A stretch of DNA of 34,882 nt from Chthoniobacterales bacterium (GCA_017853515.1 JAFMJK010000003.1:1-34882), one strand, 5' to 3'. Positions 15,698 to 32,659 are shown, counted from the stretch's first letter. The notes: generated from the sequence alone by a model not told the origin. Translations and numbers: made by a program.

Positions 15698-16780
15698 TTA
15701 CGACTCGAAATCAACCCACTTGACCAAAGAAGCGAGGCGGGGCACGCCGCCATTGTGCCAGGTCCAGTGCGGATCCTGCATGCGTCCGATGGCGCAAAAC
15801 CGCGACGGGCGCAGCGCGGCGAAGCGGTCGGCCAGTTCCTCCGTGCAGGGAAAAAGCCCGACCGCGCCGATGTATTCGGAGGCCGGACCGATCGACGAGG
15901 GCAGACCCTCCGGCAGCGGTTTGACGAAAATGACGCGGTTGAGCGGCGAGGCGGGAAACCACGCGTCTTCTTCGTAGACCACGGTCCAATCGAGATTCGC
16001 ACCCCCCTCCCAAAGGGCCACGCGCAGATCGCCCGCGGCGCGGAAGCGATAGGCGGCGCGGAGGTTGGCGATGGCCGCCTTTTCTTCCGTGGTGAGCGGA
16101 CCGCGCGGATGCGTGCGGTTGAAGCGGTCCATGGCCGAGGCGAGATGTTCCGCATATTCCCGCGCAAATCCGGAAGGCGTGTCCCGCACATAAAAAACCT
16201 GCGGGGAAAGGCATCCCTGCTGATCGAAGAGCGAAGCGTCGCGCGCGGCTCCGTCGCACGAGACAAAATGCGGATCGTCCCAAATGACGCCCAAGCTCGC
16301 CTTGTGCCCGTATCCGATAAAAATTTGCGAAGGCGAGGCCAGCCCGCGAAATCGCGCGACGGTCTCGTCCGAGCCGTAGACCACCACCGCTTCGGCTTCC
16401 GCCAGCCAACCCGGAGGCAACTCTTCCGCGGTTTGGACCTTTGCGCGCAACTCCTCGGGCAGGCGGGTGACAAAATCGCCGATCTCGGCGATCCCGCCGC
16501 GCGGAAGTTTGACCAGATTGCGGCTGCCGAGAAGCAATCCGCCGACGATCGATTGCAGCGCGGCGTGCGGCGTGTTGCCGCTGACCACGTGAAGAATGGT
16601 CTCGGGCGCAAAGGCTTTCGTCCTGCCCTTGCCGTAATCCACCCACTCGTCGATCGCACCGGCATGACCCAGCTCCAGAGCCAACCAAGCCAACAAGTCG
16701 TCCGCCCCCGTCGCACCGAGCAGGGCGCGAAATGGACCGGCCGCGACGGCCAGGGTCCCGGCTCTCTGCGCCGAGGTCAC
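15698..16780 (-). CDS. LuxC-like acyl-CoA / acyl-protein reductase
   Basis: Motifs [33 protein letters not shown], catalytic-Cys motif [20 protein letters not shown]...WHNGG. GTG start at 16780 overlaps the hppA stop (GTGA). Confidence 0.85.
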
Positions 16781-18885
16781 GCGGCAACCCAGAGCTTGAT
16801 GAAGATGGGAATGATCAGGATGGCCACGATGTTGACGACCTTGATCATGGGGTTCACCGCGGGGCCCGCCGTGTCCTTGTATGGATCGCCGACCGTGTCG
16901 CCCGTCACGCTGGCATCGTGGGCGGGAGAGCCCTTGCCGCCGTGACTGCCCAATTCGATGTATTTTTTGGCGTTGTCCCACGCGCCGCCGCTCGAGGTCA
17001 TGGCGATACCGATGAACAGCCCGGTGACGATCGTTCCGACCAGCATGCCTCCGAGCACCTTCGGACCGAAAAACGGCAACCAGGCAACAGCGACCACGAC
17101 CACCACCGGCAGGATGGCCGGTATGATCATTTCGCGCAGCGCCGCCTTGGTCACGATGTCGACGCACGTGCCGTATTCGGGCGTGTCGCTGCCGTCGAGA
17201 ATACCGGGCTTGGCCGCGATCTGCCGTCGGACCTCCTTGACCACGGCGCCGGCCGCTTTGCCGACGGCATCGAGGCTGAAAGCCGAAAAAATGAAGGGCA
17301 GGCCGCCGCCGATGAACAGCCCGATGATGACGTTGGGATCCTGAAGATCGAACGCGAGGTTGAACTGCGCGCCGAGTTGCGCGTAGGCATTTTTGAGTTC
17401 CTCGACATAGCTGCCGAAGAGAACGAGCGCGGCGAGTCCCGCCGAAGCGATGGCATAGCCCTTGGTCACCGCCTTCATCGTGTTGCCGATGGCGTCGAGA
17501 TCGTCGGTTGTGTGACGCACGCTTTTGTCGAGTCCCGCCATGACCGCGATGCCGCCGGCGTTGTCCGTGATCGGACCGAAAGCGTCGAGCGCGATGACGA
17601 TGCCCGACATGGAAAGCATGGCCATCACGGCGATCGCGATGCCGTAGAGTCCCGCGAAATTATACGACAGCATGATCGCGATGCCGATGAAGGCCACGGG
17701 GAGCGCGGTGGCATGGAGTCCGGTGGCCAATCCGGAAATGATGTTGGTGGCGTGGCCCGTTTCGGAGGCCTGCGCGATCATGCGCACGGGCCGGTGGTTT
17801 GTGGATGTGTAGTAGTTGGTGATGAGAAGCACGACGTAGGTCATGACCAGACCGATGAGCGACGCGCCGAAAACGCTGGCGGCCGAGCAGGCTCCTTTGC
17901 CGTGGATTTCGACGCCCTGCGGGAACAGCACCTGGGTGAGGGGCCAAAAAGCGATGGCGGAGAACAGGGCGCTGGTCAGCACGCCCGCCTGCAGAGCCTG
18001 GCGCGGCGCGAGGTTGATCGCATTGGTCAGAATAATGGCGACGACGGCTCCGATCACCGAAACGCCGCCGACGAGAAACGGATAAACGAGAGCGGCGGGG
18101 GAAGCGTCGCCCGTGGCTGTGAGTGATCCGATGAGAACCGCGCCGATCAGCGAAACAGCGTAGGTTTCGAAAACGTCGGCTGCCATGCCGGCGCAGTCGC
18201 CGACGTTGTCACCCACGTTGTCCGCGATGGTGGCCGGATTCCGCGGATCGTCCTCCTCGAGTTTGCTCTCGATTTTGCCGACGAGATCCGCCCCGACATC
18301 GGCGGCTTTGGTGTAGATTCCCCCGCCGAGCCGCGCAAAAACCGAAACGAGTGAACTGCCCAGCGCCGTCCCGACCAGGGCGTCGAGCGCGGCGCGCGAC
18401 GGGTCGGCCGCGCCGGTGAAATGGCTGATGCCGAGATACATCAGCCCCACGGAAAGAAGGGCGAGCCCGACGACGAGAAGTCCGGTCACGGCGCCTCCAT
18501 TGAGGGCCACGCGCAGGGCCGCGCGCGGGGATTCGGTCGCCGCTTGGGCGGTCCGCACATTGGCCCGCACGGCGATGGTCATTCCGATGTAGCCGGCGGC
18601 CAGAGAGCAGACCGCGCCGACGAAAAATCCGATGGCGGATTCCATACCGCGCCCCACCCAGACCAGGCCGATGATGATGACCGCGATGGTGCCGACACTG
18701 ACGATCTGACGGTTCAGGTAAGCCTTGGCTCCCTGCTGGACGGCGTGCGCTATCTCGCGCATGCGGTCGTTGCCGGAAGGTGCAGCCAAAACCCAGCGTA
18801 TCAACCAACCGGCGTAGGCCAGACCGAGCAAAGCGCAGGCCAACGAGATGAGCAGACCATCGGAAACAAGCGATATCTTGTGCAT
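16777..18885 (-). CDS. hppA: Membrane-integral H+-translocating pyrophosphatase, K+-independent type
   Basis: Motifs GGIYTKAADVGADLVGKIE, EDDPRNPATIADNVGDNVGDCAG, GPITDNAGG, GNTMKAVTKG, GGAWDNAKK, GDTVGDPYKDTAGP. Start set at MHKISL (ATG 18885). Confidence 0.95.
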   Translation of the reverse strand: MHKISLVSDGLLISLACALLGLAYAGWLIRWVLAAPSGNDRMREIAHAVQQGAKAYLNRQIVSVGTIAVIIIGLVWVGRGMESAIGFFVGAVCSLAAGYIGMTIAVRANVRTAQAATESPRAALRVALNGGAVTGLLVVGLALLSVGLMYLGISHFTGAADPSRAALDALVGTALGSSLVSVFARLGGGIYTKAADVGADLVGKIESKLEEDDPRNPATIADNVGDNVGDCAGMAADVFETYAVSLIGAVLIGSLTATGDASPAALVYPFLVGGVSVIGAVVAIILTNAINLAPRQALQAGVLTSALFSAIAFWPLTQVLFPQGVEIHGKGACSAASVFGASLIGLVMTYVVLLITNYYTSTNHRPVRMIAQASETGHATNIISGLATGLHATALPVAFIGIAIMLSYNFAGLYGIAIAVMAMLSMSGIVIALDAFGPITDNAGGIAVMAGLDKSVRHTTDDLDAIGNTMKAVTKGYAIASAGLAALVLFGSYVEELKNAYAQLGAQFNLAFDLQDPNVIIGLFIGGGLPFIFSAFSLDAVGKAAGAVVKEVRRQIAAKPGILDGSDTPEYGTCVDIVTKAALREMIIPAILPVVVVVAVAWLPFFGPKVLGGMLVGTIVTGLFIGIAMTSSGGAWDNAKKYIELGSHGGKGSPAHDASVTGDTVGDPYKDTAGPAVNPMIKVVNIVAILIIPIFIKLWVAA

Positions 18886-18910
18886 AAGAGAAGTGATGAG
18901 GGGAAACGGG

Positions 18911-18938
18911 AAGTTACCGCCGCGCCTGCGGCGGACAA
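18911..18938 (-). promoter_or_regulatory. Putative internal promoter TTGTCC-N16-TAACTT upstream of hppA
   Basis: Minus-strand TTGTCC at 18938-18933 and TAACTT at 18916-18911, followed by a pyrimidine-rich leader without a Shine-Dalgarno sequence. Confidence 0.45.
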
Positions 18939-18967
18939 GGCGAATTGCCGGGTCCCCCGACAACAAA

Positions 18968-19978
18968 TTACGCACCGAACCATTCGTCGGCCGAGCGCGA
19001 GCATCCGCGCGGCAAAGCGGCGGGGTCGCGTCCGAGCAATTCGAATGCGTCGCCGCGTTTGATGGCCAGATCCCGCGTGCGGATGCCGACGACCGATCCG
19101 ACATTGGCCGCATCGTAAATGAGCACGATGCCCGTTTCGCCTTCGCCGACCTCCTCGAGGGTGACCGGATCGGCGATGACGGCCCGGGCCCAGAACGGGC
19201 CGCGATGCAACCCCCGGGGACCGCGGGCGTAGAACTGCGAACTCAGCTCGGTCATGCCGTATTCGTTGCAGATGTCCGCGGGGTCAATGCCGAGCTTGTT
19301 GCCGAACAGCGCATAGAGGTCGGCCCGGGAGATGGTTCTGCCGCTCCCCTTGTATCCGCCTGTTTCCATCGCGCACGAACCGGAGGGAAGCCGGAGGGAA
19401 ATCTTTTGCCGGTCCATCGACTCGAACAAATGCAAAAACCCGAGCGCGGTGCCGAGGAGACAGACCGGTTCCCCGAGGGATGACAAGCGTGCGAGATCGA
19501 TCACCCCTTGCGGCGCGATGAAACTCTCGCGCGGCGCGAGCACGCCGAGCATGTGGCTGAGCGAAGAGTGCGGGGCTTCGTCGGGATGCGGGGCGATGAC
19601 GAGAAAAGGTCCCCGCGGCATACCGGCCAAGCGCCATCCCTCGCGCACCGCGGTCTCATAAATCTCCAGCGTGCGGAAATGGTGCTGACCGAATCCTTCG
19701 CCGGTTGTCCCGCTGGTGCGGAAAGTTTTGGCCGTTTGCCCGGCGGGGAAGCTGCGCAGGTCCGCGTGTTTGAAAGCTTCTTGCGGGACGCAGGGGATTT
19801 GGCGCCATGATTTCACGCTCTCGCCGACCCCCTGCTGCTCGCAAAAAAGACGGTAAGGCGTGTTGTGACGAAAATGGCACGCATGCAACTGGAGAGCCGC
19901 ATCTCCGAACTCGGCGCGGCGGTCTCCCCGGATCCACGAGAGCACCTGCGCCTCCGGATTTGCGGCTTCTTCCTGCAT
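18968..19978 (-). CDS. LuxE-like acyl-protein synthetase (adenylate-forming)
   Basis: Motifs FRTSGTTG loop, SSLSHM, METGGYKG, NEYGMTELSSQ, TRDLA, ELLGR, C-terminal RGCS acyl-acceptor Cys. ATG 19978 preferred to TTG 20011. Confidence 0.85.
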   Translation of the reverse strand: MQEEAANPEAQVLSWIRGDRRAEFGDAALQLHACHFRHNTPYRLFCEQQGVGESVKSWRQIPCVPQEAFKHADLRSFPAGQTAKTFRTSGTTGEGFGQHHFRTLEIYETAVREGWRLAGMPRGPFLVIAPHPDEAPHSSLSHMLGVLAPRESFIAPQGVIDLARLSSLGEPVCLLGTALGFLHLFESMDRQKISLRLPSGSCAMETGGYKGSGRTISRADLYALFGNKLGIDPADICNEYGMTELSSQFYARGPRGLHRGPFWARAVIADPVTLEEVGEGETGIVLIYDAANVGSVVGIRTRDLAIKRGDAFELLGRDPAALPRGCSRSADEWFGA

Positions 19979-20061
19979 GGCGCTATCCTGCCACCGTCCG
20001 GCGGCGGGCAAACCTCATTTTCTCCTCGCGCGCGGGCGGAAGCGGGGCACATTTTGGACAT

Positions 20062-22887
20062 GTGCGTCTGTGTGTTGTCACTCTTTGCCTCTTGCTGGCG
20101 TCGCTGATCCCGCACACACACGCGGCGGACAAGGTGGCGGCGCAACCGGCCGAAGCCGGCACGGCGCGCGATGTCATTTCGCGCGCGGACACCGCCTACA
20201 ACAACAAGCGTTACGAGGAGGCGGTGGCGGGATACCGCAATTTTCTCGCCGACTTCGGCTCGTCGGCGGAAGCGGCGCCTTGGATGCCCCGCGTGCGCTA
20301 CCACCTGGCTGCCGCGCTCCTGCAATTGCAGAAATACAACGACGCGGTCGAGGCCATCGAGGAAGCCCGCAACATCAAGGAGATGGGCGCGAAAGAAAGG
20401 GAAGATCTCTCTTTCTGGGCGGGCGTGGCTTTGCTGCAGACCGGCAATCACGAGGAGGCGGGCAAAGCGCTGGCCGAATTCCGCCAGGAGTTTCCGCAGT
20501 CCGCCCGCCGCCCGGACGCAGAACTGCTCGCCGCCACCGCGTTGTTGGCCGGGGGAAAAAAGGAGGAGGCGGCCAAGTCGTTCGCCGTCATCCGCAAATC
20601 CCCGAAGCATCCGCATGCCGGGCGCGCCGCGGTGCTTGAGTTGCACTGCCTGATCGAAACGGGTCAGGACAACCCCGCGCTCGAACTTCTTGCCGAGGAG
20701 GGGCCGGAGATGGGCAAAAGGATCAACCAAGTGGCGACCTTCCAGACGCTGGCTCTCGCCCTGGGCGAAAAGCTGCTCGAAGAAGACCGGCCGCGCGATG
20801 CCATCCGCGCTTTGCAGAACGTCTGGGCGCGGGATCGTTTGATCGCCCACCAAAAACGGAAGCTCGAGGAAACCAAGCAGCGTCTGGCCGCGATCGAGGC
20901 CTCGCCCAAGCCGGATGTTTTTGCGCGCGCGCAGGCGAAACAGCTGGTGCGCGAAGTGGAGAAAGAGCTGGCCAACCTCGAAAAGATTCCGTCCTTCGAC
21001 GCTTCGGTCCGCTTCCGTCTGGCCACGGCTTTCCACGCGCAGGAGCGCTACCGCGAGTGCGCCATGTTGCTCGACGATATGTTGCGGCAGATGAAACCGG
21101 ATCCGGTCGTGGAAAAAGCCACGCTCAGCGCCCTGCAAAGTTGGATGGCGATCGAGCGTTACGACCGCGCCATCGAAGCCTCCCAGCTTTTCGAGCAGAA
21201 TTTTCCCGCGTCGAAAAGCCTGCCCCTCGTCATCTACCTGCGCGGCACGGCGCAACAAAAAGCGGAAAAATACGACGATGCCGTGGCGACGTTCTCGGTC
21301 CTGCGCGAAAAATTCGCATCTTCCGAGCAGGCGCCGCGCGCATTTTTCATGACCGGGTTCACGCAGTTGCTGGCAGAGCGCAATGACGAAGCGGCCGAGA
21401 CTTTCCGGCAATTCGAGGAGAAGTATCCCGAGCACGAGTTGGCCGAACCGGCGAACTACTGGCGCGGTTCGGCGCTGGCCTTCGCCAAGAAATTCCCCGA
21501 AGCGCGCGAGGTGCTGGGGGCGCACGCGGAGAAGTTCCCCAAGGGAACGCTGCTCGGACCGGCGGCCTTCCGCCGCGCCTATTGCGCGCAGTCGCTCAAG
21601 GAATACGAGACGGCGGAAGCGGAGTTGAAGGATTACCTGAAAAAGTTCCCCCAAGGCGAAGAGAACGCCGAGGCGCGCATCCTGCTCGGCGATGCCTTGC
21701 TCGCGCAGGCCGAATCGGACGAGGGGAAGAAAGTTTATGCCTCGATCGAGCCCGCGTCGGGGCGTTTCCACGAAGACGCGCAATTCAAGCTGGCCAAGGT
21801 GCTCAAGCTCGAGGAGGACTACGATGGGCTGCGCGACCTGATGCAGAAATACCTGCAGGCCTACCCGCGCAGTCCGCGCGCGGCGGAAGCGCTTTTCCAG
21901 ATCGGGCAGGCGTGGCGCAAACAAGACCAACCCGAGAAGGCGATCGAGGCATACTGGGCGGCCATCGGCGAGCGGGGCAACGACGACCAAGCCTACGCCG
22001 TGGAGGACATGATGCTGGCCCTCGACCGCCACTACAAAGGCGAGTCGGAGAAGCGCGACTTCCAGGCCCGCCTGCGCGCGGTGCGCGAGAAAGCGCAAGC
22101 CGAGGGGCAAAGCGTTCTGACCGTGCGCACCATCTGGGCCCTGGCCCGCAGCGTGAAAAAAACGGATCCCGCGCTGAGCGAAGCTTTGTTGCGGGAGGCC
22201 GGCGCGTTGGCCGAGGCGGAGCGGACCAGTCCGGTGATTCTGGCGGACTGCGCCGAGGCGCAATTCGCCGCCGCCGCCGCTGCCGCGCCCGAGGACGCGG
22301 CCGTGCGCCGGGCCAACGCCGCACAGATTTATCGCGACCTGCTCAAGTGGCACCCGCGCGCGGCGCAGAAAGACAAGGCGCTCGCCGCGCTCGCGCGCAT
22401 CGCTGTCGACGCGGGGGACACCGAGACGGCGCTGGCCTATTACGACCGGCTCGAGCGGGACACACCGTGGTCCTCGCTCATGGGCGAGGTCCTCGCGGCG
22501 CGCGCCGGCATCGAGATGGAAGCGGGGAACACCGACAAGGCGGCGGAGGCATACACGCAGTTGCTCGCCGCGGAAAACGTGCCGAGCAAAATGAAAGCGC
22601 AGGCCCTTCTCGCCCTCGGTGAGATCGAGATGTCGCGCCAGCGGCCGCAGACGGCCATCCCGTATTACCAACGCATCTATGTCCTCTATGGCAAATGGCG
22701 CGAGACCGTGGCGCAGGCTTACCTGCGCAGCGGCGAAGCTTTCGAGCAACTCAAGGATGCCGAGGCCGCGCGAAAAACCTACGAGGAGCTGGCCAACAGC
22801 GAGGACCTCGCATCGCTTCCCGAAGTGCAAACCGCGCGCGAACGCCTGAAGCGGTTTCCCGCCGCGCCGGACCCGTCGTCATCGTGA
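20062..22887 (+). CDS. Large secreted tetratricopeptide-repeat protein (about 940 aa)
   Basis: Signal peptide VRLCVVTLCLLLASLIPHTHA. Many repeats of the form A...F..F...FP.S/YP.S (BamD/CpoB-style TPR). The GTG start at 20062 is inferred. Confidence 0.85.
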   Translation: MRLCVVTLCLLLASLIPHTHAADKVAAQPAEAGTARDVISRADTAYNNKRYEEAVAGYRNFLADFGSSAEAAPWMPRVRYHLAAALLQLQKYNDAVEAIEEARNIKEMGAKEREDLSFWAGVALLQTGNHEEAGKALAEFRQEFPQSARRPDAELLAATALLAGGKKEEAAKSFAVIRKSPKHPHAGRAAVLELHCLIETGQDNPALELLAEEGPEMGKRINQVATFQTLALALGEKLLEEDRPRDAIRALQNVWARDRLIAHQKRKLEETKQRLAAIEASPKPDVFARAQAKQLVREVEKELANLEKIPSFDASVRFRLATAFHAQERYRECAMLLDDMLRQMKPDPVVEKATLSALQSWMAIERYDRAIEASQLFEQNFPASKSLPLVIYLRGTAQQKAEKYDDAVATFSVLREKFASSEQAPRAFFMTGFTQLLAERNDEAAETFRQFEEKYPEHELAEPANYWRGSALAFAKKFPEAREVLGAHAEKFPKGTLLGPAAFRRAYCAQSLKEYETAEAELKDYLKKFPQGEENAEARILLGDALLAQAESDEGKKVYASIEPASGRFHEDAQFKLAKVLKLEEDYDGLRDLMQKYLQAYPRSPRAAEALFQIGQAWRKQDQPEKAIEAYWAAIGERGNDDQAYAVEDMMLALDRHYKGESEKRDFQARLRAVREKAQAEGQSVLTVRTIWALARSVKKTDPALSEALLREAGALAEAERTSPVILADCAEAQFAAAAAAAPEDAAVRRANAAQIYRDLLKWHPRAAQKDKALAALARIAVDAGDTETALAYYDRLERDTPWSSLMGEVLAARAGIEMEAGNTDKAAEAYTQLLAAENVPSKMKAQALLALGEIEMSRQRPQTAIPYYQRIYVLYGKWRETVAQAYLRSGEAFEQLKDAEAARKTYEELANSEDLASLPEVQTARERLKRFPAAPDPSSS

Positions 22888-23777
22888 GAAAGACCGTCGC
22901 CATCTTTGCCGCCGTCCTCTGCGCAGGCGCCGCGCCGCTCGCGGCGCAGGACACCGTCCATTTGACCGACGGGACGAAGCGCAACGTGAAGATCCTCGGC
23001 TTGCAGGCCGAAGCGTATCTCATTTCGCTTCCGTCACCCGTGCCGGGGCAGGCCGCGGGCACCACGACCATGAAGCGCGACACCGTTTCGCGCATCGTTT
23101 TCGGGCCAGATCCGGTTTTGGACGCGGTGGCCGCCAATGTCGTCGCCGGTTCTCTCTCCTCCGCCCGCTCGCGCTGGCAAAACCTGCAGCCTTTCCTCGG
23201 TATTCCGGAATCGCGCGCCGGCGAGGCGGGTTGTCTTGTCGGGGAAATTCTTCTGCTCGGCCCGGACCCCGCGCGCCACGAGGAGGCGCTGGCCGTTTTC
23301 AAGACGGTCGAAGCGGGCGCGTGGAATGTCGGCGACCGCCAGCGCGCGACACGCGGGCGCCTCATGGCCATGATCAAAAAAGGACAACTCGAGGAAGCTT
23401 CGCTCGAGGCGGAACAGATCGAACGCACGGCGGAGGAACCGGATCTGGTCATCGAGATAAAACTGCTCCTCGCCGAGGCCCGCATGGCGTCGCTCAAGAC
23501 GCTCTTGGCCGACAACCCCCGCTGGAACGAGGATCCGCCGGTGCGCGCCGAGCGGGCGCGCCTCATCCACGAAGGCGTCGAATTCGCGCTCTTTCCTTTT
23601 CTTTTCCACGGCACCAAGCGCGCCCAAGCGGCCCGCGGTCTCTGGCTGGCGCACGGGATCTATGTGCTCGCCGGCGACGAACATGCGGCGCGCGAGGTTG
23701 CCACCGACCTCACGTCGATATATTCCGAAACACCCGAGGCGGAAAAAGCCTCGGCCCTTCCCGACAAAAAATCATGA
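22884..23777 (+). CDS. Secreted hypothetical protein with N-terminal DTVHLTDG beta-domain and TPR-like helices
   Basis: GTG at 22884 overlaps the TPR stop (GTGA). Signal peptide ends APLAAQD. Stop overlaps the exbB start. Confidence 0.8.
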   Translation: MRKTVAIFAAVLCAGAAPLAAQDTVHLTDGTKRNVKILGLQAEAYLISLPSPVPGQAAGTTTMKRDTVSRIVFGPDPVLDAVAANVVAGSLSSARSRWQNLQPFLGIPESRAGEAGCLVGEILLLGPDPARHEEALAVFKTVEAGAWNVGDRQRATRGRLMAMIKKGQLEEASLEAEQIERTAEEPDLVIEIKLLLAEARMASLKTLLADNPRWNEDPPVRAERARLIHEGVEFALFPFLFHGTKRAQAARGLWLAHGIYVLAGDEHAAREVATDLTSIYSETPEAEKASALPDKKS

Positions 23778-24577
23778 TCACACCGAAATACATCCGAGTC
23801 CTTGCCCTTGCCGCCCTGGCGTTCCTCGCCGTTCTGGCCGGAGCCCAGGCGCAGGACGCGCCCGCAACACCGCCCGCCGGAAAGCCCGCCGTGGAAAAAA
23901 GCCTTCTCGACCTCTTCTTTGCGGGCGGCGCGCTCATGTGGCCGATTCTGGCCTGTTCGGTCGGCACGATCGCGGTCGGTGTCTACTGCTTCATCCAAAT
24001 CAACCAGAAGAAGATGATGCCGAAGGCGCAGGAATCCGCCGTCTCGCAATGTATGCAACTGCGCGACCCGAACGCGGCCTATCAGCTCTGCCAGAGCCAG
24101 CCCAATGTTTTCGCCAACACGATGAGCGCGGCCTTGCTCAAAGTGAACTTCGAACGGGAATTGGCCAACAAGCTGTCCATGGAACAGGCCGCCGGCGAAA
24201 CGCTCATGCAGGAAGAGCAACGGCTCATGATCTGGGTCAACTACCTCAACATCTTCGCCACCATCGCGCCGATGCTCGGTTTGCTCGGCACGGTCACCGG
24301 CATGATCCAGAGTTTCGACCAGCTGGCCGCGGGTCGGAGCGAACCGTCCGACCTGGCCGGCGGTATCGGCGAGGCGATGTTGACCACGGCGGGCGGACTC
24401 ATCGTCGGCATTCCGGCAATGTTTCTCTTCTTCTACTTCCGCAACCTCCTGCAGGTGGCGATCGGCAACATCCAGAAAGCGGTCACTTTCATGATTGATG
24501 TGCTTTCGGGCGAATTGAAGCTCGAGAGCGCGGTGCATTCGCACGAGGTCGCGGCCGAGGAACCCGCCGAGGAATAG
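23774..24577 (+). CDS. MotA/TolQ/ExbB proton-channel family protein
   Basis: Motifs GGALMWPI, IAPMLGLLGTVTGMIQSF, LAGGIGEAMLTTAGGLIVGIPA. N-terminal signal-peptide-like segment. ATG 23774 in an ATGA overlap. Confidence 0.93.
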   Translation: MITPKYIRVLALAALAFLAVLAGAQAQDAPATPPAGKPAVEKSLLDLFFAGGALMWPILACSVGTIAVGVYCFIQINQKKMMPKAQESAVSQCMQLRDPNAAYQLCQSQPNVFANTMSAALLKVNFERELANKLSMEQAAGETLMQEEQRLMIWVNYLNIFATIAPMLGLLGTVTGMIQSFDQLAAGRSEPSDLAGGIGEAMLTTAGGLIVGIPAMFLFFYFRNLLQVAIGNIQKAVTFMIDVLSGELKLESAVHSHEVAAEEPAEE

Positions 24578-24598
24578 CCCCGCGTCTTTGATCCCGTC

Positions 24599-25006
24599 AT
24601 GAAGATCTCCCGCCGCCCCGACGACGAGATGGGCTTTCAACTCGCCCCGATGATCGACATGACTTTCCTCCTGCTCATCTTTTTCATGGTGACGACGAAG
24701 ATTTCCAAGGAGCAGATCAAGGAGGAGATCAAGCTGCCGGTGGCGAGCAACGCCGTCATCCCGAAGGACATCAGCAACCGCGACATCATCAGCATCGACG
24801 ATCAGGGCCGCTATTTCATCGGCGCCGAGCCGACCGACAAAAAGCGTTTGGCCGACTACCTGAAGAAGCGCTTCGAAAACACGCCGCCCCTGCGCCTTTA
24901 CATCCGGGCCGACAAAACGACGCCCGCCAAAAAAATCAAAGAAGTCATGAAGATGGCCGCGGACGCCGGGGCGATCGATGTGATCTTCGGCAGCTACCAA
25001 ACCTGA
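24599..25006 (+). CDS. ExbD/TolR family protein (copy 1)
   Basis: LAPMIDMTFLLLIFFMV with the conserved TM Asp, IKLP, YIRADK. Confidence 0.93.
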   Translation: MKISRRPDDEMGFQLAPMIDMTFLLLIFFMVTTKISKEQIKEEIKLPVASNAVIPKDISNRDIISIDDQGRYFIGAEPTDKKRLADYLKKRFENTPPLRLYIRADKTTPAKKIKEVMKMAADAGAIDVIFGSYQT

Positions 25007-25009
25007 ACC

Positions 25010-25459
25010 ATGCAAGTCCGCCGTCGCGACCAGCAGCTCGTCGAGATGCAAATGGGCCCCATGATCGACATGGTGTTCCTGCTCCTTGTCTTCTTCATGG
25101 TCACGGCCAAGCCGGTGAAACAGGAAAGCGACATCAGCCTCGGGTTGCCCGGCACGGTCTCGGCGGAGGAAACGGTGGAGTTGCCCGACGAGCAGCGCAT
25201 CCGCATCGAGGACGACGGCAGTGTCGTGCTCAACGACTCCGTGATCGGACCGCCGGCCGACAGCGCGTTGACCGGGCTTGTCGCCACGCTCAAGCGCTTC
25301 AAGGAATCGGCCGACGCGAACAAGGCCGACGCGCTGGTCACGCTGGATGCTTCCGACGGGACCAATCAGCAACGCATCGTCGATGTTCTCAACGCCTGCG
25401 CCAAGGCCGACATCGGCGGTGTGACCTTCTCGGACAGCGCGAGCGAGGAGGAGATGTAG
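25010..25459 (+). CDS. ExbD/TolR family protein (copy 2)
   Basis: MGPMIDMVFLLLVFFMV with the conserved TM Asp, LGLP, IVDVLNACAKA. Confidence 0.92.
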   Translation: MQVRRRDQQLVEMQMGPMIDMVFLLLVFFMVTAKPVKQESDISLGLPGTVSAEETVELPDEQRIRIEDDGSVVLNDSVIGPPADSALTGLVATLKRFKESADANKADALVTLDASDGTNQQRIVDVLNACAKADIGGVTFSDSASEEEM

Positions 25460-25466
25460 CGTTGCG

Positions 25467-26570
25467 ATGACGACGGAGACTCTCGATCCGCAGATCGCCG
25501 CCCGTCAGCGACGCAAGAGGTTGATCGTCACGGTCATCGTGGCCAGTATTGCCGTGCACTTCATCGGCGCGATTGGAGCCGGTATCTGGATCGTCGCGCG
25601 CTATTTTCTCCCGCCGGCCGCCACGTTCGAAGTGAAGAAGGAAATCCGCATCGCCGCCGAGGAGCGCGAGCACCGCATGAACATGGCGGAGTTCGACGCG
25701 GCGCAGCCCAAGCCGACTTTCACCGACAAGATGTCTTCGGCGCGGCCGACGGAGTTCGCGCTGCCCGACTTGCCGCTCCTGCCGGTGGACACGGCGACTA
25801 CGCTCGATCCGAGCGACATCGTGTCCGATCAACTCTCCGCCCTCGCCGGCGCAGGCGCCGGCGCGGGAACCGGATCCGGCGGCGGGGGGAAGAGTGGCTC
25901 GGCGGTCAGTTTCTTCGGTATTTCCGACATGGCCACGCGCGTCATTATCGTCGTCGATGTTTCCAACACGATGTTCGACCGCCAGCCCGGCAAGTTCCAC
26001 GCGGTCAAGACGGAGGTGGCCAAGCTCATCCAGGGCCTGGGGATCAACACCCTTTTCAATGTCATCATCTACGAGGGCGGATCGGTCGCCATGTTCCCCG
26101 AACCGCAGCCGGCTTCGGATGGCAACAAAGCCAAGGCGGCCGCTTGGGTGGAAAGTGTCGATGGAGGCAGCGACAAGTCGGGCGCGTCCTACAAGAGCAA
26201 ATACAGCCAGATGGGCACCGGCCTTTACGAAGGCGGAGGCACGCGCACCGATACCGCGCTGAAGCAGGCGCTGTCCATGCGGCCGAGCACGGTTTTTCTC
26301 ATCACCGACGGCGAGATGAGCCGGATGGGTGGCGGCGCGCCCGCCGAAGAGGAAGACCGCAAGAAGGATGACGGTGCGAGCTCCGATATCACCGAGGCCG
26401 AGTTGCTCCGCATGATCAAAGACCTGCAGGGCAAAATGGAGCAGCCCGCGAGGATCCACGTGGTTCATTTTCTGACCAAAGCCGCGCGCGACGAGGAGGA
26501 AAAAGTGTTGCGCTCGGTGGCGCGGCGCAACGACGGCCGCTTCCAACAGGTCAAAGCCGAGGATTACTGA
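25467..26570 (+). CDS. Membrane-anchored von Willebrand factor A (vWA) domain protein
   Basis: N-terminal TM (LIVTVIVASIAVHFIGAIGAGIWIV), Pro/Thr-rich then Gly-rich linker, vWA strands IIVVDVSNTM, FNVIIY, GGGTRT..AL..AL, VFLITDG, IHVVHF, VARRNDGRF. Confidence 0.85.
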   Translation: MTTETLDPQIAARQRRKRLIVTVIVASIAVHFIGAIGAGIWIVARYFLPPAATFEVKKEIRIAAEEREHRMNMAEFDAAQPKPTFTDKMSSARPTEFALPDLPLLPVDTATTLDPSDIVSDQLSALAGAGAGAGTGSGGGGKSGSAVSFFGISDMATRVIIVVDVSNTMFDRQPGKFHAVKTEVAKLIQGLGINTLFNVIIYEGGSVAMFPEPQPASDGNKAKAAAWVESVDGGSDKSGASYKSKYSQMGTGLYEGGGTRTDTALKQALSMRPSTVFLITDGEMSRMGGGAPAEEEDRKKDDGASSDITEAELLRMIKDLQGKMEQPARIHVVHFLTKAARDEEEKVLRSVARRNDGRFQQVKAEDY

Positions 26571-26624: not shown

Positions 26625-27347
26625 ATGGTGGAAATCCTGGAGAAACTTCTCCTCCTGCAGGAGCGCGATCAGAAGCTGCAGGCTTTTCACCATGAGATCA
26701 ACGGCGTGCCGGGTGAGAAAGCCGCGTTGCAGAGGGAGCTCGATGCCGCCCAGCGCACGCTGGAGAACGACAAAGCCCGCGCCACCCAGATCGAAATCGA
26801 GCGCAAGCGGCTCGAGGTCGAGGCCGATGCCAAGCGTGCGCAGATCGCCAAATACCAGACGCAGCAACTCGAGACGCGCAAGAACGAGGAGTATTCCGCG
26901 CTGAAGCACGAGATCGAGCGCGCGCAGTCGGACATCACATCGATCGAAGACCGCGAACTCGAACTGATGCAGGAATTCGAAGATCTCAAGCCGGTCATTG
27001 CCGCGGCCGACGCGAAATACACCGCCGAAAAAAACCGCGTCGCCGCGCTGGTCAAAACGGCCGACGAAAAAGTCGGCGTGCTGCAGGGCCGGGCAGCCGA
27101 ATTGCAAGTCGAGCGCGAGGCGGTTGCCGCGGAAGTCAAAGCGGCCGACGAGGATCTTTTCGAGCTCTACGAGAAATTGTTCCGCTCCAAAACCGGGCGT
27201 GCCGTCGTTCCGCTCGAAGGCAACCACTGCTCGGGGTGCCACATGACCGTCACCCCCGCCACGCTGCGCGATGCCAAAGTCGGCGCTAGCGTCGTCTCCT
27301 GCGAGCAGTGCGGACGGATTATCTACAACCTGCCGGAGTACGCGTAG
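26625..27347 (+). CDS. Coiled-coil protein with C4-type zinc ribbon (DUF164 / CT398 / HP0958-like)
   Basis: Long heptad-rich helix, KNEEYSAL.HEI, C-terminal CSGCHM...CEQCGRIIY. Confidence 0.88.
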   Translation: MVEILEKLLLLQERDQKLQAFHHEINGVPGEKAALQRELDAAQRTLENDKARATQIEIERKRLEVEADAKRAQIAKYQTQQLETRKNEEYSALKHEIERAQSDITSIEDRELELMQEFEDLKPVIAAADAKYTAEKNRVAALVKTADEKVGVLQGRAAELQVEREAVAAEVKAADEDLFELYEKLFRSKTGRAVVPLEGNHCSGCHMTVTPATLRDAKVGASVVSCEQCGRIIYNLPEYA

Positions 27348-27350
27348 AAA

Positions 27351-29234
27351 TTAGTGCCCGTTGGCGCCGTTGCCGTTGGTTCCGGCGCCGCGCGGCTCGA
27401 ACTCATCGCGGAATTTTCCGACAAAGCTCTGCGTCGGCCACGCGCAGGCTTCCCCGAAAGCGCAGACCGTTCGGCCGGCGATGTTGTCCGCGATACCGAC
27501 GAGTTGCTTGGCGTCGGTCGTCTTGATGTCGCCGTGGAGCATGCGCGTGGTGACCTTGGACATCCACAGGCTGCCCTCGCGGCAAGGCGTGCACTGCCCG
27601 CAGCTCTCGTGAGCGTAAAAGTCGTTGATGTTGTTGAGCACCCAGAGCATGTCGCGCGAATCGTCGAGGATCATGACGCCCGCGCTGCCGATCATGGAGC
27701 CGGCGGCGGCCAATGAGTTCGCATCCATGACCAGATCCATGAGGTCGACCTCGACCGTGGTTTCGGCGCCATCGGGACCTTTGCGCTTCATTTTGAATTT
27801 CTCCCCGGCCTTGAGCACTTTGGCCGAGCTGCCGCCGGGAATGATGGCCTTGAGTTTCCGTCCGGGCTTCATTCCCCCGCACAGTTCGATGAGCTGGCCG
27901 ACGGTGACTTGGCCGCATCCGAGTTCGTAAAATCCCGGGTTCCGCACATCGCCGCTGACGCCCAAGGTGCGCGTGCCGCCGTCGCCCGGCGACCCGAGTT
28001 TGGCGAATTCCGCGCTGCCCATCGCGATGATGTGCTTCACGTGGCAGAGGGTTTCGACGTTGTTGACGATGGTCGGGCAGTTGTAGAGACCGAAGACCGC
28101 GGGGAAGAAAGGCGGTTTGATGCGCGGGTAGGGGCGCTTGCCCTCGAGCGATTCGAGGAGGCTTGTCTCCTCGCCGCAAATGTAGGCGCCGGCTCCCTGG
28201 TGGACATAAATGTCGCAGTCGAATCCGGAGCCGAGGACGTTCTTGCCGATGAAGCCGCGCTCGCGGGCCTCGGCGATGGCTTTGGTCACGATGCGCGCCG
28301 CTTCGGGGAACTCGCAGCGGATGTAGATGTAGCTGAGGTGCACATTGAGCGCCCAGGCGGCGATCATCATGCCCTCGAGCAACTGGTGCGGATCCTCGTG
28401 CAGGATGTAGCGGTCTTTGAAAGTGCCCGGCTCGGACTCGTCGCCGTTGACCACGAGATAGTGGGGCTTGCCGTCCTCGCGTTTGATGAAGCTCCACTTC
28501 ACGCCGCACGGGAATCCAGCGCCGCCGCGCCCCCGCAGGCCCGAGGCCTTCACCTCGTTGACGATTTCGTCCGGCTTCATGCCCAGCGCTTTCTTCAAGG
28601 ACTCGTAGCCGCCGTTCCGGAGGTAACAATCGATCGAAGCGTCATAGTCTTCCCGCCCGACATGGCGCAGGACCAAGCGCCGCTCCGCGGGATGCGGCGC
28701 GCGGATCGTCTTGCGGTAGCCGGTCTCTCGTCCGAGCAACGAGGCGGCGTCTTCGGGAGCGATGCGTTCGTGCAGATCGTCGCCGACCATGGCGACCGGT
28801 GCGCTGCCGCAGCTGGCCAGGCACTCGACAAATTCGATGGTGCAGCTGCCGTCCGGTGCGGTCACCTCGTGCGCATGATCGTCATGGTCGGTGTCGCAAC
28901 CCGCCGCGCGGCAGAGATTCTTGTGCAGGTCGTAGGATCCGGCCATGGCGCATGAGAGAGTGCGGCAAACGCGGATGATTTTCCTCCCCGGCGCCGTCTG
29001 GCGGAACCACGGGTAAAACGTGACCAGTTCGAGAATATTGATCGGCTCGAGTTCGAGACGGCGCGCGATCCAGTCGACCCCGCTGTCGTCGATCCAGCCG
29101 AAGTGATTCTGCCAGAGGTGGAGAAGGGGGAGGGACGCGCTCCGCTTCGAGACGGGGTAGTGGGTGACGGCCTCGTCAACGGCGGCCAGAAGGCCCTGCG
29201 GGATATTGTCGGCTTGGCGGGACGTGGCGGTCAT
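27351..29234 (-). CDS. nuoEF: Fused NADH-quinone oxidoreductase subunits E and F
   Basis: NuoE part: VTFYPWF, CRTLSC...ECLASC 2Fe-2S ligands. NuoF part: [54 protein letters not shown]...C. Single continuous frame. ATG 29234 (alternative TTG 29243). Confidence 0.93.
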
Positions 29235-29358
29235 GAACGGCAATTAGTCCTTCAAGGATACGTCCGCTTCAAGAAAAACGATGCTTCGGGCGCCCCGCGG
29301 CGCTTGCCAGCCTGCGGGGAGCCTGCGAAAATGGAAGCCAATCAAAGAAAGGCCATTC

Positions 29359-30422: not shown

Positions 30423-31553
30423 GTGTCTGCCGCCCCGGAACAAAGCATCGTCGAAGTCGTCGAGGAGAACCCGCCTGCCGTCCATGTGCTGCACCATGTG
30501 GACCAATACTTGGCCATCGGCAAGGAGTCCGGCGCATCGGACATCCATCTGAGCGTCAACCTGCGGCCGACGTGGCGCCGCTTCGGGACGCTCGAGCCGA
30601 TCTGGTTGCAGGCGGACAAATTGACCGCGGCCGATACCGAGCGCCTGGCCATGAGTTTTCTCGATGAAGCCCAGAAAAAGCTGCTCGAGGAGCGGGGCGA
30701 TGTGGACTTTGCCTATACCAACGAAAACGGACGCTACCGCACGAGCGTGGTGCGGCACCGTTTGGGTTACGACCTCGTTTTCCGGATCATCCAGGCAAGC
30801 GTGCGTTCCATGGACGAACTTGGACTGCCGCCGCAACTCAAGCTTCTCACCCAATTTCAGAACGGGTTGGTTCTGGTCACGGGTTCGGTCGGCAGCGGCA
30901 AGAGCACGACGCTTGCCGCGCTGGTCGAGGAGGTGAACCGCACGCGCCACGAACACATCATCACGCTGGAGGATCCGATCGAATACCTTTTCACCCCGCA
31001 GGGCTGCCAGGTGAACCAGCGCGAAGTGCACACCCATACCGAATCGTTCGGCGCCGCGCTGCGCGGTGCTTTGCGCGAGGATCCGGATGTCATCATGGTC
31101 GGCGAAATGCGCGATCTGGAGACCATCTCGCTGGCCATCACGGCCTCGGAGACCGGCCACTTGGTGCTCGGCACCCTGCACACCGGCAATGCGGCACGAA
31201 CGCTTGACCGCTTGCTCGACGTCTTCCCGGTCGACCAGCGCGAACAGATCCGCACCATGGTCAGCGAGTCGTTGCGCGGGATCATTTCCCAGCAACTCGT
31301 GCCGCGCGCCGACGGAGCGGGCCGGGCGCTGGCCATCGAAATTCTCATGAACACCCCGGCGGTGGCCAACGTCATCCGTGAATCGAAAACGTTCATGCTT
31401 CCCGGGATCATCCAGACGGGCAAAAAGCTGGGCATGAAGCTGATGGATGATTCATTGGCCGACCTCTACCGTGCGGGACTCATCTCCGCCGACGAAGCGG
31501 TGTCGCGCGCCGAGCAGAAGCCGGCCATGAAGCAAATCTGCGGCGTCATCTGA
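30423..31553 (+). CDS. pilT: Type IV pilus retraction ATPase, PilT family (copy 1)
   Basis: Motifs GASDIHL, Walker A GSVGSGKSTT, ITLEDPIE, ALREDPDVIMVGEMRD, ETGHLVLGTLH, AVANVIRE. Confidence 0.9.
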   Translation: MSAAPEQSIVEVVEENPPAVHVLHHVDQYLAIGKESGASDIHLSVNLRPTWRRFGTLEPIWLQADKLTAADTERLAMSFLDEAQKKLLEERGDVDFAYTNENGRYRTSVVRHRLGYDLVFRIIQASVRSMDELGLPPQLKLLTQFQNGLVLVTGSVGSGKSTTLAALVEEVNRTRHEHIITLEDPIEYLFTPQGCQVNQREVHTHTESFGAALRGALREDPDVIMVGEMRDLETISLAITASETGHLVLGTLHTGNAARTLDRLLDVFPVDQREQIRTMVSESLRGIISQQLVPRADGAGRALAIEILMNTPAVANVIRESKTFMLPGIIQTGKKLGMKLMDDSLADLYRAGLISADEAVSRAEQKPAMKQICGVI

Positions 31554-31558
31554 CTTTT

Positions 31559-32659
31559 ATGGCCCACCGTATCGACCAACTTTTCGAAGTGCTGATCAAC
31601 GCGGGCGCTTCCGATCTGCATTTGGCCGAAGGCCAACCGCCGAAGATCCGCCGTCATGGCGACGTCATTCCAATCCGCGACGAGGTGCTCACCGCGGACG
31701 AAATGAACTACATGCTCAGCGAGATCTGCACGCCGAAGAACTGGGAGCGGTTCCAGAACAAAGGCGACCTCGACTTCGCCTACGAGATGAACGAGGACAG
31801 CCGGTTCCGCTGCAATTATTTCAAGCAGGTGCACGGCTTGGGCGCCGTCTTCCGGTTGATCCCGACGCGCATCGCCACGATCGACGAATTGGGCCTTCCT
31901 CCGGTCATCAAGGAGTTCGGTCACCTCCGCGGGGGCCTTGTCCTCGTCACCGGCCCGACCGGATCCGGCAAGAGCACGACCCTGGCCGCGCTCATGGACT
32001 ACATCAACACCAACTTCGCCCGCCACATCGTCACGGTGGAGGAGCCGATCGAGTTCGTGCACTCGAACAAGAGCAGCATCATCACGCAGCGCGAGGTTCC
32101 CGAACACTCGGCGAATTTTCCGGCGGGACTGAAGGCGGCGCTGCGCGAGGATTCCGATATCGTCCTCGTCGGCGAGATGCGCGACTTGGAGACAATATCG
32201 CTGGCTTTGACCGCTGCGGAAACGGGCCTGCTTGTTTTCGGAACGTTGCACACCAACAACGCGCGCAAGACGGTCGACCGCATGATCGATGTCTTTCCCT
32301 CGGACCAGCAGGCGCAGGTCCGCACCATGCTCGCGTCTTCGCTGCGGGGTGTGGTCGCGCAGTTGCTGCTCAAGCGGCACGACGGCGGCGGGCGCATTGC
32401 CGTGAACGAAATTCTCGTCGTCAACAGCGCGGTCGGGGCCATCATTCGCGAGGGGGCCACGCAGAAGTTGCAGGACGCCATCGTGGGCGGCAAGGCGCAG
32501 GGCATGCAATTCATGGACGATGCCATCTGGGCCCAACTCCAGCAGGGACACGTTTCACCGCACGAGGCCTTCATGAAGGCGATCGACAAGAGCCGCTTCA
32601 AAGCATTTCTCCCGGAGGAGGAGGCCCAGCTGGCCAACTCGGCCGGTGGCGCCGCGTAG
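31559..32659 (+). CDS. pilT: Type IV pilus retraction ATPase, PilT/PilU family (copy 2)
   Basis: Motifs GASDLHL, Walker [54 protein letters not shown]. Confidence 0.85.

Follow-up and report, generated by a model that had tools for sequence, protein, structure and literature searches.

A putative proton-driven ExbB/TolQ–ExbD/TolR motor operon of a Chthoniobacterales bacterium, with a membrane-anchored vWA protein as its probable output arm

What does an ExbB/TolQ–ExbD/TolR motor drive when its operon encodes no protein with a TonB C-terminal domain? The question is raised by a 34,882-nt sequence from a Chthoniobacterales bacterium, a freshwater Verrucomicrobium (GCA_017853515.1 JAFMJK010000003.1:1-34882), which is the whole stretch of DNA analysed here and is called the window below. 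On its plus strand, from 20062 to 26570, lie six co-oriented genes whose junctions are 4-nt overlaps or gaps of 3–21 nt. In one RNA library, short contigs at 90–97% identity, which stem from a relative, give weak evidence of transcription. The original prediction, made from the DNA alone, was that the six genes encode one ExbB/TolQ, two ExbD/TolR proteins, an anchored vWA protein, and two exported proteins of TPR type; gene calls, Pfam searches, and structural models bear this content out. We put at roughly 0.7 the probability that the operon encodes a proton-driven inner-membrane ExbB/TolQ–ExbD/TolR motor in which the vWA protein, not TonB or TolA, is the output arm.

The motor genes occupy the middle of the operon. 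The ExbB/TolQ gene (23774–24577, ATG start; 267 aa) overlaps gene 2 by 4 nt. Its product has an N-terminus resembling a signal peptide, followed by three TM segments, and matches MotA_ExbB (PF01618) at 1.3e-24. After a 21-nt gap comes the first ExbD/TolR paralogue, ExbD1 (24599–25006, 135 aa; PF02472, 1.1e-21), and, 3 nt farther on, the second, ExbD2 (25010–25459, 149 aa; PF02472, 2.5e-19); the two are about 28–33% identical in cross matches. ExbB retains the residues aligned with those that we take to be T148, E176, and T181 of E. coli ExbB. In both ExbDs, as had been predicted, the TM Asp is kept when they are aligned to E. coli ExbD, at the position that is presumably D25. In NCBIfam profiles, TolQ scores above ExbB (61.6 bits vs. 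a cut-off of 221, and 45.5 bits vs. 206.2 for TIGR02797), and with each of the two paralogues TolR likewise outscores ExbD (TolR, 52.7 and 45.1 bits vs. a cut-off of 127.3; ExbD NF008429, 44.2 bits for ExbD1 and 18.3 for ExbD2 vs. 216), all of these values being far below the equivalog level. A PDB sequence search finds ExbB (5sv0, 1.8e-8) and TolQ (3.3e-7) as the closest solved relatives. In a 15-row tree, whose long branches carry a warning of false joins, the operon ExbBs group together (92/92), and neither the genome's own tonB-linked ExbB nor E. coli ExbB and TolQ fall within this clade. None of the six operon proteins matches a PADLOC model, a set that covers anti-phage defence systems with MotAB-like motors such as Zorya, at E ≤ 0.01.

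The sixth gene (25467–26570, 367 aa) begins 7 nt after ExbD2 and encodes the vWA protein. Its AF2 model (pLDDT 82) has a TM helix at residues 8–47, a helix at 64–79, a low-confidence stretch at 80–144, and a vWA fold at 145–367. The TM anchor (residues 19–47; 25521..25607) has an N-in topology, with a basic cytoplasmic stretch before the helix, and carries S27-x3-H31. Among 115 aligned representatives, the Ser is kept in 84 and the His in 98. Of the SHLS motif, the first half alone, S-x3-H, is retained, with A/G and V/I at +7 and +11 from the His. E. coli TolA also carries S-x3-H. The anchors of distant loci have S/T-x3-H in six of the seven shown, with S-x4-H in the remaining one (L066). Right after the helix lies a candidate motor box (residues 53–62; 25623..25652), with F54 present in 104 of the 115; since the monomer model shows only coil at these residues, we infer a motor box here rather than observe one. 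The linker, residues 48–144 (97 residues), is Pro/Gly-rich and largely disordered apart from its one short helix. The head (residues 145–367; 25899..26567) matches Pfam VWA_3 (1.2e-6) and VWA_2 (3.9e-6), and Foldseek returns 227 PDB matches at E ≤ 0.001 with vWA domains on top (ITIH1 6fpy, 2.7e-8; BatB 3ibs, 5.1e-8). A MIDAS-like motif is formed by D164-x-S166-x-T168, T259, and D281; the consensus in relatives is D.S.S, ..T.., and ..DG, and D164, S166, D281, and G282 are each conserved in at least 90% of the 47 sequences of the alignment.

The N-in, S-x3-H-bearing TM helix, the post-helix motif, the linker of ~97 residues, and the globular head together make the vWA protein a likely motor arm, that is, a putative force transducer with the build of TonB or TolA. 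Neither the vWA protein nor any other of the window ORFs scanned matched the TonB C-terminal domain (PF03544/PF13103), and the families TonB_C, TolB, Pal, and TonB-dependent receptor likewise gave no match among these ORFs (sets of 13 and 40), as had been claimed for the window. The description of the motor as “TonB-less” thus holds in the sense that no TonB_C protein is in the operon; it fails in that a transducer is present. Nor is the vWA protein well described as merely a partner of the motor, its TonB/TolA build making the role of arm likely. Compared with the Ton system, the locus shares the ExbB/ExbD-type motor with its key Thr, Glu, and Asp residues, the N-in S-x3-H anchor, and the long flexible periplasmic linker. 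In contrast to Ton, a vWA head replaces TonB_C, there are two ExbD paralogues, and no TonB-dependent receptor was found in the 90.9%-complete genome; the operon ExbB and ExbDs also remain far below the equivalog cut-offs of NCBIfam.

Operons of this kind have been described in silico, as vWA force-transducer operons of the PVC group (Williams-Jones et al. 2025, Mol Biol Evol 42:msaf138, PMC12204202). [quoted passage not shown] According to the same account, “many” members carry the SHLS motif, the motor box is a β-strand predicted in the disordered stretch that follows the TM helix, and the anchor His binds the motor edge in AF3 models of homologues; it also states that no deletion phenotype has been reported. 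The present locus shares with these operons the SHLS-type His helix, the disordered linker, about 100 residues long, that holds the post-helix motif, the vWA head, and the gene order. Judged against that account, nothing essential differs, and the locus adds a Chthoniobacterales member. It follows that the locus belongs to a known, uncharacterised kind: as to the novelty that the original prediction left unconfirmed, the operon type was already published in 2025, while the function is indeed uncharacterised. The small second TPR protein, the MIDAS motif, siblings with PA14 heads, and loci without motor genes go unmentioned in section 8 of the paper and in the legend to its Fig. 4, though its figures or supplements may show some of them. 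A second family described there, TPH-vWA, likewise pairs a TolQ-like gene with a vWA protein anchored in the membrane. In that family, an ExbD-like helix bears an Asp, and tolQ stands alone, with no tolR genes. The present protein does not belong to it, since its anchor helix bears a His but lacks Asp and two ExbD genes precede its gene.

We propose that the machine would work as follows. The TonB-like helix would hold the vWA arm in the membrane, where the ExbB pentamer is expected to receive the conserved His on its outer face. The ExbD pair would grip the post-helix motif with its periplasmic domains. A mixed ExbD1/ExbD2 pair, the heterodimeric rotor of the original prediction, is plausible, as is action on a TPR scaffold. 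The gripping subunit is most likely ExbD2, whose gene is always beside the vWA gene. The flexible linker of ~97 residues would let the head span the periplasm. A metal-ion-dependent adhesion site is retained in the head, which therefore probably clamps a partner by an acidic residue; the head would be pulled as the motor turns. In the cell, such a machine may tether or remodel the envelope, or it may serve uptake or movement over surfaces.

The two TPR proteins are encoded by the first two genes. Gene 1 (20062–22887, GTG start) encodes a 941-aa protein whose N-terminal signal peptide contains no lipobox Cys. Pfam finds TPR_6 (1.5e-30), TPR_16, and YfiO, reflecting many TPR_6/YbgF-like and BamD-like repeats, and NCBIfam gives 195 bits for tol_pal_ybgF across seven stretches (cut-off 90.1) and 115 bits for BamD. 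Gene 2 (22884–23777, GTG start; 297 aa) overlaps gene 1 by 4 nt and has no match in Pfam. Its product has a signal peptide, and the AF2 model (pLDDT 91) shows a small β domain (23–72) and a helical-repeat solenoid (77–290); VIA-align scores this model at Z 15.8–15.0 against TPR solenoids and at Z 12.1 against the TPR domain of Xanthomonas YbgF.

A YbgF-like TPR protein beside a TolQ-leaning motor brings to mind a system for envelope integrity and division like Tol-Pal, with the vWA protein standing in for TolA and the large YbgF/CpoB-like protein for CpoB, that would tether or remodel the outer membrane and cell wall. This proposal concerns the role of the machine and not its build. Its resemblances are the NCBIfam preference for TolQ and TolR, the YbgF/CpoB-type TPR protein in the operon, with its score above the cut-off, and the S-x3-H shared with TolA. 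In addition, Williams-Jones et al. (PMC12204202), in their account of the family, derive the vWA transducers from Ton/Tol stock. However, the TolQ and TolR scores fall far short of their equivalog cut-offs, and the PDB search puts ExbB slightly above TolQ. The 195 bits, being summed over seven repeats of a 941-aa protein, show the repeat type and not orthology. The operon also differs from Tol-Pal in having no TolA C-terminal domain and no TolB or Pal gene, in the operon or elsewhere in the window, and in having a second, small TPR protein and a TPR protein of many repeats in first position. Among the window ORFs, the families TolB_N, PD40, and OmpA gave no match. Across the genome, TolB_N had no match, a result that proves little since the genome is 90.9% complete; PD40 was matched on C221 and OmpA-like domains on C55 and C164. 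On balance, we consider a Tol-Pal-like role unlikely.

Gene order in relatives supports treating the six genes as one unit. All six were matched in order in 10 of 16 fetched loci from the same order and in 4 of 11 further loci. Among loci from other classes of the phylum, 13 of 20 have the succession of TPR, small TPR or a gap of 0.7–1.4 kb, ExbB, ExbD1-type, ExbD2-type, and anchor genes. One of these 13 is from a Kiritimatiellia MAG, in which the operon order is identical and the anchored protein is matched by the vWA family profile at 3.3e-71. The synteny on which the original prediction depended is thus conserved from Chthoniobacterales to Kiritimatiellia, and the arrangement is not a matter of chance. 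Orthologues of gene 1 take the first operon position in the fetched relative loci. A family HMM of gene 2 matches 32 frames in related loci, and the gene at position 2 of distant operons encodes a small TPR protein by Pfam; a small TPR gene is the conserved second gene of these operons. ExbD1 orthologues invariably fill the first ExbD slot, in same-order and distant loci alike, and ExbD2 invariably adjoins the anchored vWA gene. In two distinct loci, L053 and L057, it does so even though ExbB and ExbD1 are missing (L025 and L057 are one contig and were counted once).

In some other loci, the motor genes are missing. In L046, L056, and L029, the TPR, small TPR, and anchored vWA genes are kept with no motor gene between them, and anchor genes with no motor gene nearby were found in 6 of the 20 distant loci as well as in L046 and L056. 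Coupling to this particular motor is, therefore, not obligatory. The genes of the two exported TPR proteins accompany the vWA gene even at loci with no motor genes, which makes these proteins the most likely partners or scaffold of the arm.

The same conservation argues against an ordinary ExbBD motor serving a TonB from another locus, in which case the TPR and vWA genes would be neighbours of unrelated function, such as Bat-like proteins for aerotolerance. The rest of the genome holds five further ExbB loci and three TonB_C matches, so cross-talk is possible. However, the TonB_C gene of C71 directly follows an exbB-exbD pair of its own and the TonB_C match of C155 lies just upstream of another such pair, and neither the TonB-dependent barrel (PF00593) nor Plug (PF07715) was found in the genome at its 90.9% completeness. 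The Bat comparison has some substance: BatA/BatB with BatC/BatE likewise combine membrane-anchored vWA and TPR proteins, the head fold is like that of BatB (3ibs), and the large TPR protein has a weak BatC match in NCBIfam (6.9e-5; 22.4 bits vs. a cut-off of 175). In contrast to a Bat operon, the locus has ExbB and ExbD genes inside the operon, and no MoxR ATPase or DUF58 match was found among the window ORFs scanned. Taken with the S-x3-H of the vWA anchor and the order kept as far as Kiritimatiellia, these observations make an ordinary ExbBD motor with chance neighbours very improbable.

A motor of one TolQ-like and two TolR-like subunits is also found in Myxococcus, where vWA and TPR proteins take part in the work of AglR/AglQ/AglS and where the vWA adhesin CglB is an outer-membrane or surface protein. 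By analogy, the operon might encode an adhesion or gliding machine of the Agl-Glt type, powering a vWA adhesin along a TPR scaffold. The likeness is one of composition alone. Here, the vWA domain is fused to an inner-membrane anchor, unlike CglB, and no TonB_C-type GltG/GltJ-like protein or other Glt family was matched in the window. Two PilT-like ATPases are encoded 4 kb downstream of the operon, but unrelated genes on both strands separate them from it. A gliding role is suggested in PMC12204202 itself, within its treatment of these operons. We regard a machine of the Agl-Glt type as improbable for the present locus.

We return to the vWA protein as the arm of an ExbB/TolQ–ExbD/TolR motor. 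Some sibling operons encode the same anchor with a PA14-like head. It is tempting, though decidedly tentative, to propose that the TonB-like anchor is a swappable chassis, bearing a MIDAS-carrying vWA head or a PA14, lectin-like head within the same operon, and that Verrucomicrobiota thereby possess proton-powered grappling arms. At times there may be two tandem arms, and the N-terminus may carry cytoplasmic SAM or Ser/Thr-kinase domains. The two TPR scaffolds may hold the ligands, protein or glycan, on which the arms pull. Were this so, such arms would be a main route by which inner-membrane energy reaches the outer envelope where no TonB-dependent receptor is found. The anchor family occurs in 49 of the 151 sampled Verrucomicrobiota genomes and in 36 of 79 genera.

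The window corresponds to contig C261 in a Chthoniobacterales MAG of 2.2 Mb (275 contigs, 90.9% complete), and close homologues of the window proteins are labelled Chthoniobacterales or Verrucomicrobia. Six co-oriented genes are packed between positions 20062 and 26570 of the forward strand, as follows. Gene 1 (20062–22887, +, from the chosen start) encodes a large TPR protein of 941 aa with a signal peptide. Gene 2 (22884–23777, +), which overlaps gene 1 by 4 nt, encodes a second exported protein of 297 aa, also with a signal peptide. Gene 3 (23774–24577, +) overlaps gene 2 by 4 nt and encodes ExbB. After a gap of 21 nt comes the ExbD1 gene (24599–25006, +), followed 3 nt later by the ExbD2 gene (25010–25459, +) and, after a further 7 nt, by gene 6 (25467–26570, +), which encodes a 367-aa vWA protein. 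Gene calls together with Pfam and NCBIfam results agree with the original prediction of this gene set, its spacing included. The large TPR protein matches numerous TPR families (Pfam TPR_6 at 1.5e-30, TPR_16, YfiO) and, in NCBIfam, tol_pal_ybgF with 195 bits across seven stretches and BamD with 115 bits. The Pfam matches of the other genes are MotA_ExbB for gene 3 (1.3e-24, in the frame starting at 23774), ExbD for genes 4 and 5 (1.1e-21 and 2.5e-19, respectively), and VWA_3/VWA_2 for gene 6 (about 1e-6); gene 2 has no Pfam match. A 278-aa ORF at 23662, in another frame than ExbB, was set aside as spurious. The predicted lack of TonB-type partners in the window also stands, as none of the 13 + 40 ORFs scanned matched a TonB_C, TolB, Pal, or TonB-dependent receptor family. 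The idea of a defence system was dropped, there being no PADLOC match.

The available transcript data come from one metatranscriptome run (X20), in which 13 short RNA contigs from a relative match at 90–97% identity. One of these spans the ExbB–ExbD1 junction (24425–24670). The contigs do not establish that the operon is read as one transcript or that the strain itself expresses it, and the parts left uncovered are meaningless. The scan for signals was uninformative: it gave no promoter-like site, and its 16 terminator-like sites compare with 10.3 ± 3.6 in shuffled sequence.

The motor encoded by the operon is of the ExbB/ExbD type and complete, catalytic residues included. ExbB retains the residues aligned with T148, E176, and T181 of E. 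coli ExbB, and both ExbDs retain the Asp aligned with D25 of E. coli ExbD. In a PDB sequence search, the best-scoring relatives were ExbB (1.8e-8) and TolQ (3.3e-7), with MotA at 4e-3, so that the motor proteins belong to the ExbB/TolQ branch and not to that of MotA. They score under the NCBIfam equivalog cut-offs of both ExbB/ExbD and TolQ/TolR. In a 15-row tree, for which long branches call for caution, the ExbBs of operons of this kind form a clade with support of 92/92. As the original prediction expected of a motor distinct from the Ton and Tol systems, this clade is separate from the canonical E. coli ExbB and TolQ, from the tonB-linked ExbB of the same genome (contig C71), and from that of contig C155. 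The two ExbDs are also distinct from each other. In all 13 distant loci with this order of motor genes, the first ExbD is closest to ExbD1, and the second is closest to ExbD2 or to the counterpart of ExbD2 in a distant operon. The duplication is therefore old, and its two copies are not interchangeable.

The ExbB clade also takes in an ExbB from contig C38 of the same genome, which groups with those of the PA14/vWA-type operons of loci L028 and L030. The C38 locus (L015:5453–8095, − strand) is a second, paralogous one, encoding a TPR protein (253 aa), ExbB (303 aa), and two ExbDs. No anchored protein was found there, and the locus converges on a 1196-aa ORF without a Pfam match. Over the whole genome, ExbB loci number six, ExbD matches eight, and TonB_C matches three. 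Searches of this 90.9% complete assembly turned up no match to Plug, to a TonB-dependent barrel, or to TolB_N. At the cut end of contig C242, a weak match to the anchor module of the vWA protein lies just downstream of exbB-exbD.

The vWA protein was folded from a 47-row alignment (pLDDT 82). In the model, a basic N-terminus leads into a single long TM helix (residues 8–47), followed by a short helix (64–79), a low-confidence Pro/Gly-rich segment (80–144), and a vWA fold (145–367). The vWA fold matches PDB vWA domains, among them those of ITIH1 (2.7e-8) and BatB (5.1e-8), with 227 matches at E ≤ 0.001. An exhaustive search for the family gave 1377 matches at E ≤ 0.001, 51 of them at ≤ 1e-30, and the query was aligned with 114 representatives of 320–480 aa from the best 150 of these 1377. 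Within the TM helix, S27 is conserved in 84 and H31 in 98 of the 115 rows. Just past it, 104 of the 115 rows retain F54, and further on E68-H69, P83, L99-P100, and F149-F150-G151 are conserved. The head retains D164-x-S166-x-(S/T)168, T259, and D281-G282, a MIDAS-like pattern. An N-in S-x3-H anchor, a conserved motif, and a flexible spacer of about 100 residues give the protein the build of TonB and TolA, a TonB-like anchored arm carrying a vWA head. E. coli TolA has the same S-x3-H; of the SHLS motif, only the S-x3-H half is kept in the anchor of the vWA protein.

The original prediction of an uncharacterised envelope machine is supported in part; the class itself was already described in 2025, as vWA force transducers, by Williams-Jones et al. 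(Mol Biol Evol 42:msaf138; PMC12204202). According to the accessible part of that paper, these proteins occur in Proteobacteria, Planctomycetes, Verrucomicrobia, Bacteroidetes, and Rhodothermaeota; the anchor His sits at the motor edge in AF3 models; and no deletion phenotype is reported there for the class. The window operon shares with the vWA transducer operons set out in that part of the paper the TM anchor with its conserved His, the linker of about 100 residues, the C-terminal vWA fold, and the gene neighbourhood of a TPR gene, one tolQ-like gene, and two different tolR-like genes. The locus is a further example of a class published from sequence analysis alone, and its novelty is limited since that publication; the machine is widespread, and a specialist knowing the 2025 paper would not be surprised by it. 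Akkermansia mucin-utilisation loci are a possible link. Literature searches, with most subscription journals outside their scope, returned no paper on that link; nor did they return a further paper describing operons of this type or any that pairs PA14 heads with ExbD.

The same anchor also carries other heads. When the heads of the best 150 representative clusters were classed by phmmer, the N-terminal module (TM helix, post-helix motif, and linker) was joined to a vWA head in 94 and to a PA14-like head in 13; when 13 proteins of the latter kind were scanned, 7 matched Pfam PA14. The module stood alone in 14, mostly fragments, and in 29 only the head matched. PA14-like heads on an S-x3-H anchor and linker are found in locus L030 (1318–2514, −) and in the family representatives P0156, P0177, P0178, P0195, P0204, P0209, and P0223. 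The L030 protein aligns over its full length with P0178 (9e-44) and ends the same six-gene order, after TPR, small TPR, ExbB, ExbD, and ExbD. In three representatives, cytoplasmic SAM and/or Ser/Thr-kinase domains precede the anchor: P0182 has SAM, Ser/Thr kinase, and anchor; P0166 has SAM, anchor, and vWA; and P0242 has kinase, anchor, and vWA. These fusions hint at signalling through the arm. Neither the PA14-headed nor the SAM/kinase variants were found in the accessible part of Williams-Jones et al. (PMC12204202), whose main text never uses the words PA14, kinase, SAM domain, or MIDAS.

A locus search with the single vWA protein recovered only Chthoniobacterales-level relatives, and among 41 genomes sampled across the genus and the order, 30 have the protein, the window's own included. 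Sixteen loci from these genomes were analysed by tblastn. All six genes stand in the same order in 10. Three more (L027, L028, and L030) have TPR, a gap of about 1 kb, ExbB, ExbD, ExbD, and an anchored protein; by Pfam, the gaps of L028 and L030 each encode an exported TPR protein of small size, and that of L027 an exported ORF with a marginal TPR match only (E 0.0063). The rest are L025, with ExbD2 and vWA only; L029, with TPR, small TPR, and an anchored vWA-like protein and no motor; and an uninformative 3.1-kb contig. Among 11 further loci, four (L047, L048, L050, and L060) have the six genes, two (L046 and L056) have TPR, small TPR, and vWA uninterrupted by motor genes, and two are cut by a contig end. 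In the remaining three rows, which represent two distinct loci (L053; L057, identical to L025), only ExbD2 adjoins the vWA gene. The anchors that were read in these variants (L046, L029, L053, and L057) still carry A/S-x3-H.

Across the phylum, the family profile matches (E ≤ 1e-10) 49 of 151 sampled Verrucomicrobiota genomes at least 90% complete. These represent 36 of 79 genera, and a single genome may have as many as four copies. Thirteen of 20 distant loci, one of them from a Kiritimatiellia MAG (L064), have the order TPR, small TPR or a gap of 0.7–1.4 kb, ExbB, ExbD1-type, ExbD2-type, and anchor; in six, the anchor gene has no motor genes nearby, and one gave no match. The six genes are kept together over a wide phylogenetic span (10/16, 4/11, and 13/20 loci). 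Three distant loci (L073, L080, and L082) have two tandem anchored-protein genes after the motor genes; in L073, both products are about 440 aa long and have S-x3-H. A 1.2-kb contig binned as ‘uncultured Microbacteriaceae’ (L036) has a vWA-anchor gene 72% identical to that of the window; misbinning is the probable cause, rather than a true Gram-positive member of the family.

The small TPR protein, folded from a 43-row alignment (pLDDT 91), is modelled as a signal peptide, a small β domain (residues 23–72), and a helical-repeat solenoid (residues 77–290). Foldseek gave no match to the model at E ≤ 0.001. VIA-align Z values of 15.8–15.0 against TPR solenoids and 12.1 against the YbgF TPR domain indicate the fold class only, since such values are common among helical repeats. 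In distant operons, the gene at the same position encodes a small TPR protein (Pfam TPR_6, 7.8e-9 and 8.6e-10), and in the ESM Atlas, the neighbours of the window protein are clusters of small TPR proteins from Verrucomicrobiota and Planctomycetota. A complex prediction with small TPR residues 20–297 and vWA head residues 143–367 scored 0.00 against a mark of 0.32; no controls were folded, and the score argues neither for nor against binding.

Ton and Tol are the two textbook routes by which proton-motive energy reaches the outer membrane in double-membraned bacteria. A third type of arm with an adhesin-like head, as widespread in Verrucomicrobiota as the sampled genomes indicate, points to an envelope process. 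We propose that the anchor would dock on the ExbB pentamer via H31, that the periplasmic domain of one of the ExbDs would grasp the F54 stretch, and that proton flow would pull the arm. ExbD2 is the best candidate for this grasp, since the ExbD2 gene adjoins the vWA gene even in loci that have lost ExbB and ExbD1 (L053, L057). The head would hold a ligand via its MIDAS site, and the ligand or scaffold would most likely be one or both of the exported TPR proteins of the operon, since TPR, small TPR, and vWA are kept without motor genes in L046, L056, and L029. The YbgF-type repeats would suit a Tol-Pal-like role in tethering or remodelling the envelope. With its tether to the inner membrane, the vWA head is a poorer fit to the gliding or adhesion role suggested in the accessible part of PMC12204202. 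The window locus is a clean, compact six-gene example that focuses attention on the anchor His, the TM Asp in both ExbDs, the MIDAS residues of the head, and, as candidate ligands, the two TPR proteins.

The flanking genes are unrelated to the operon. A gene for a CT398-like coiled-coil and C4 zinc-ribbon protein (26625–27347, +) begins 54 nt after the vWA gene. It also follows the vWA gene in the five loci examined (L017, L019, L020, L031, and L032) of the six same-genus loci that reach past it, the sixth being that of genome G001, via L052. By tblastn, it has no match in the other-family loci that extend past the vWA gene; with its position kept in same-genus loci and no match in other families, it was left out of the system. 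On the − strand immediately 5′ of the operon (15698–20011), genes for a LuxC-like acyl-CoA reductase and a LuxE-like acyl-protein synthetase lie on either side of an H+-pyrophosphatase gene. A lone NuoD-like gene is found at 14127–15374. A single 630-aa ORF at 27351–29243 (−) combines a NuoE-like 2Fe-2S thioredoxin-like domain with NuoF-like FMN/4Fe-4S domains. About 4 kb downstream of the operon, two tandem PilT-type T2SSE ATPase genes (30423–32659, +) are followed by glgB.
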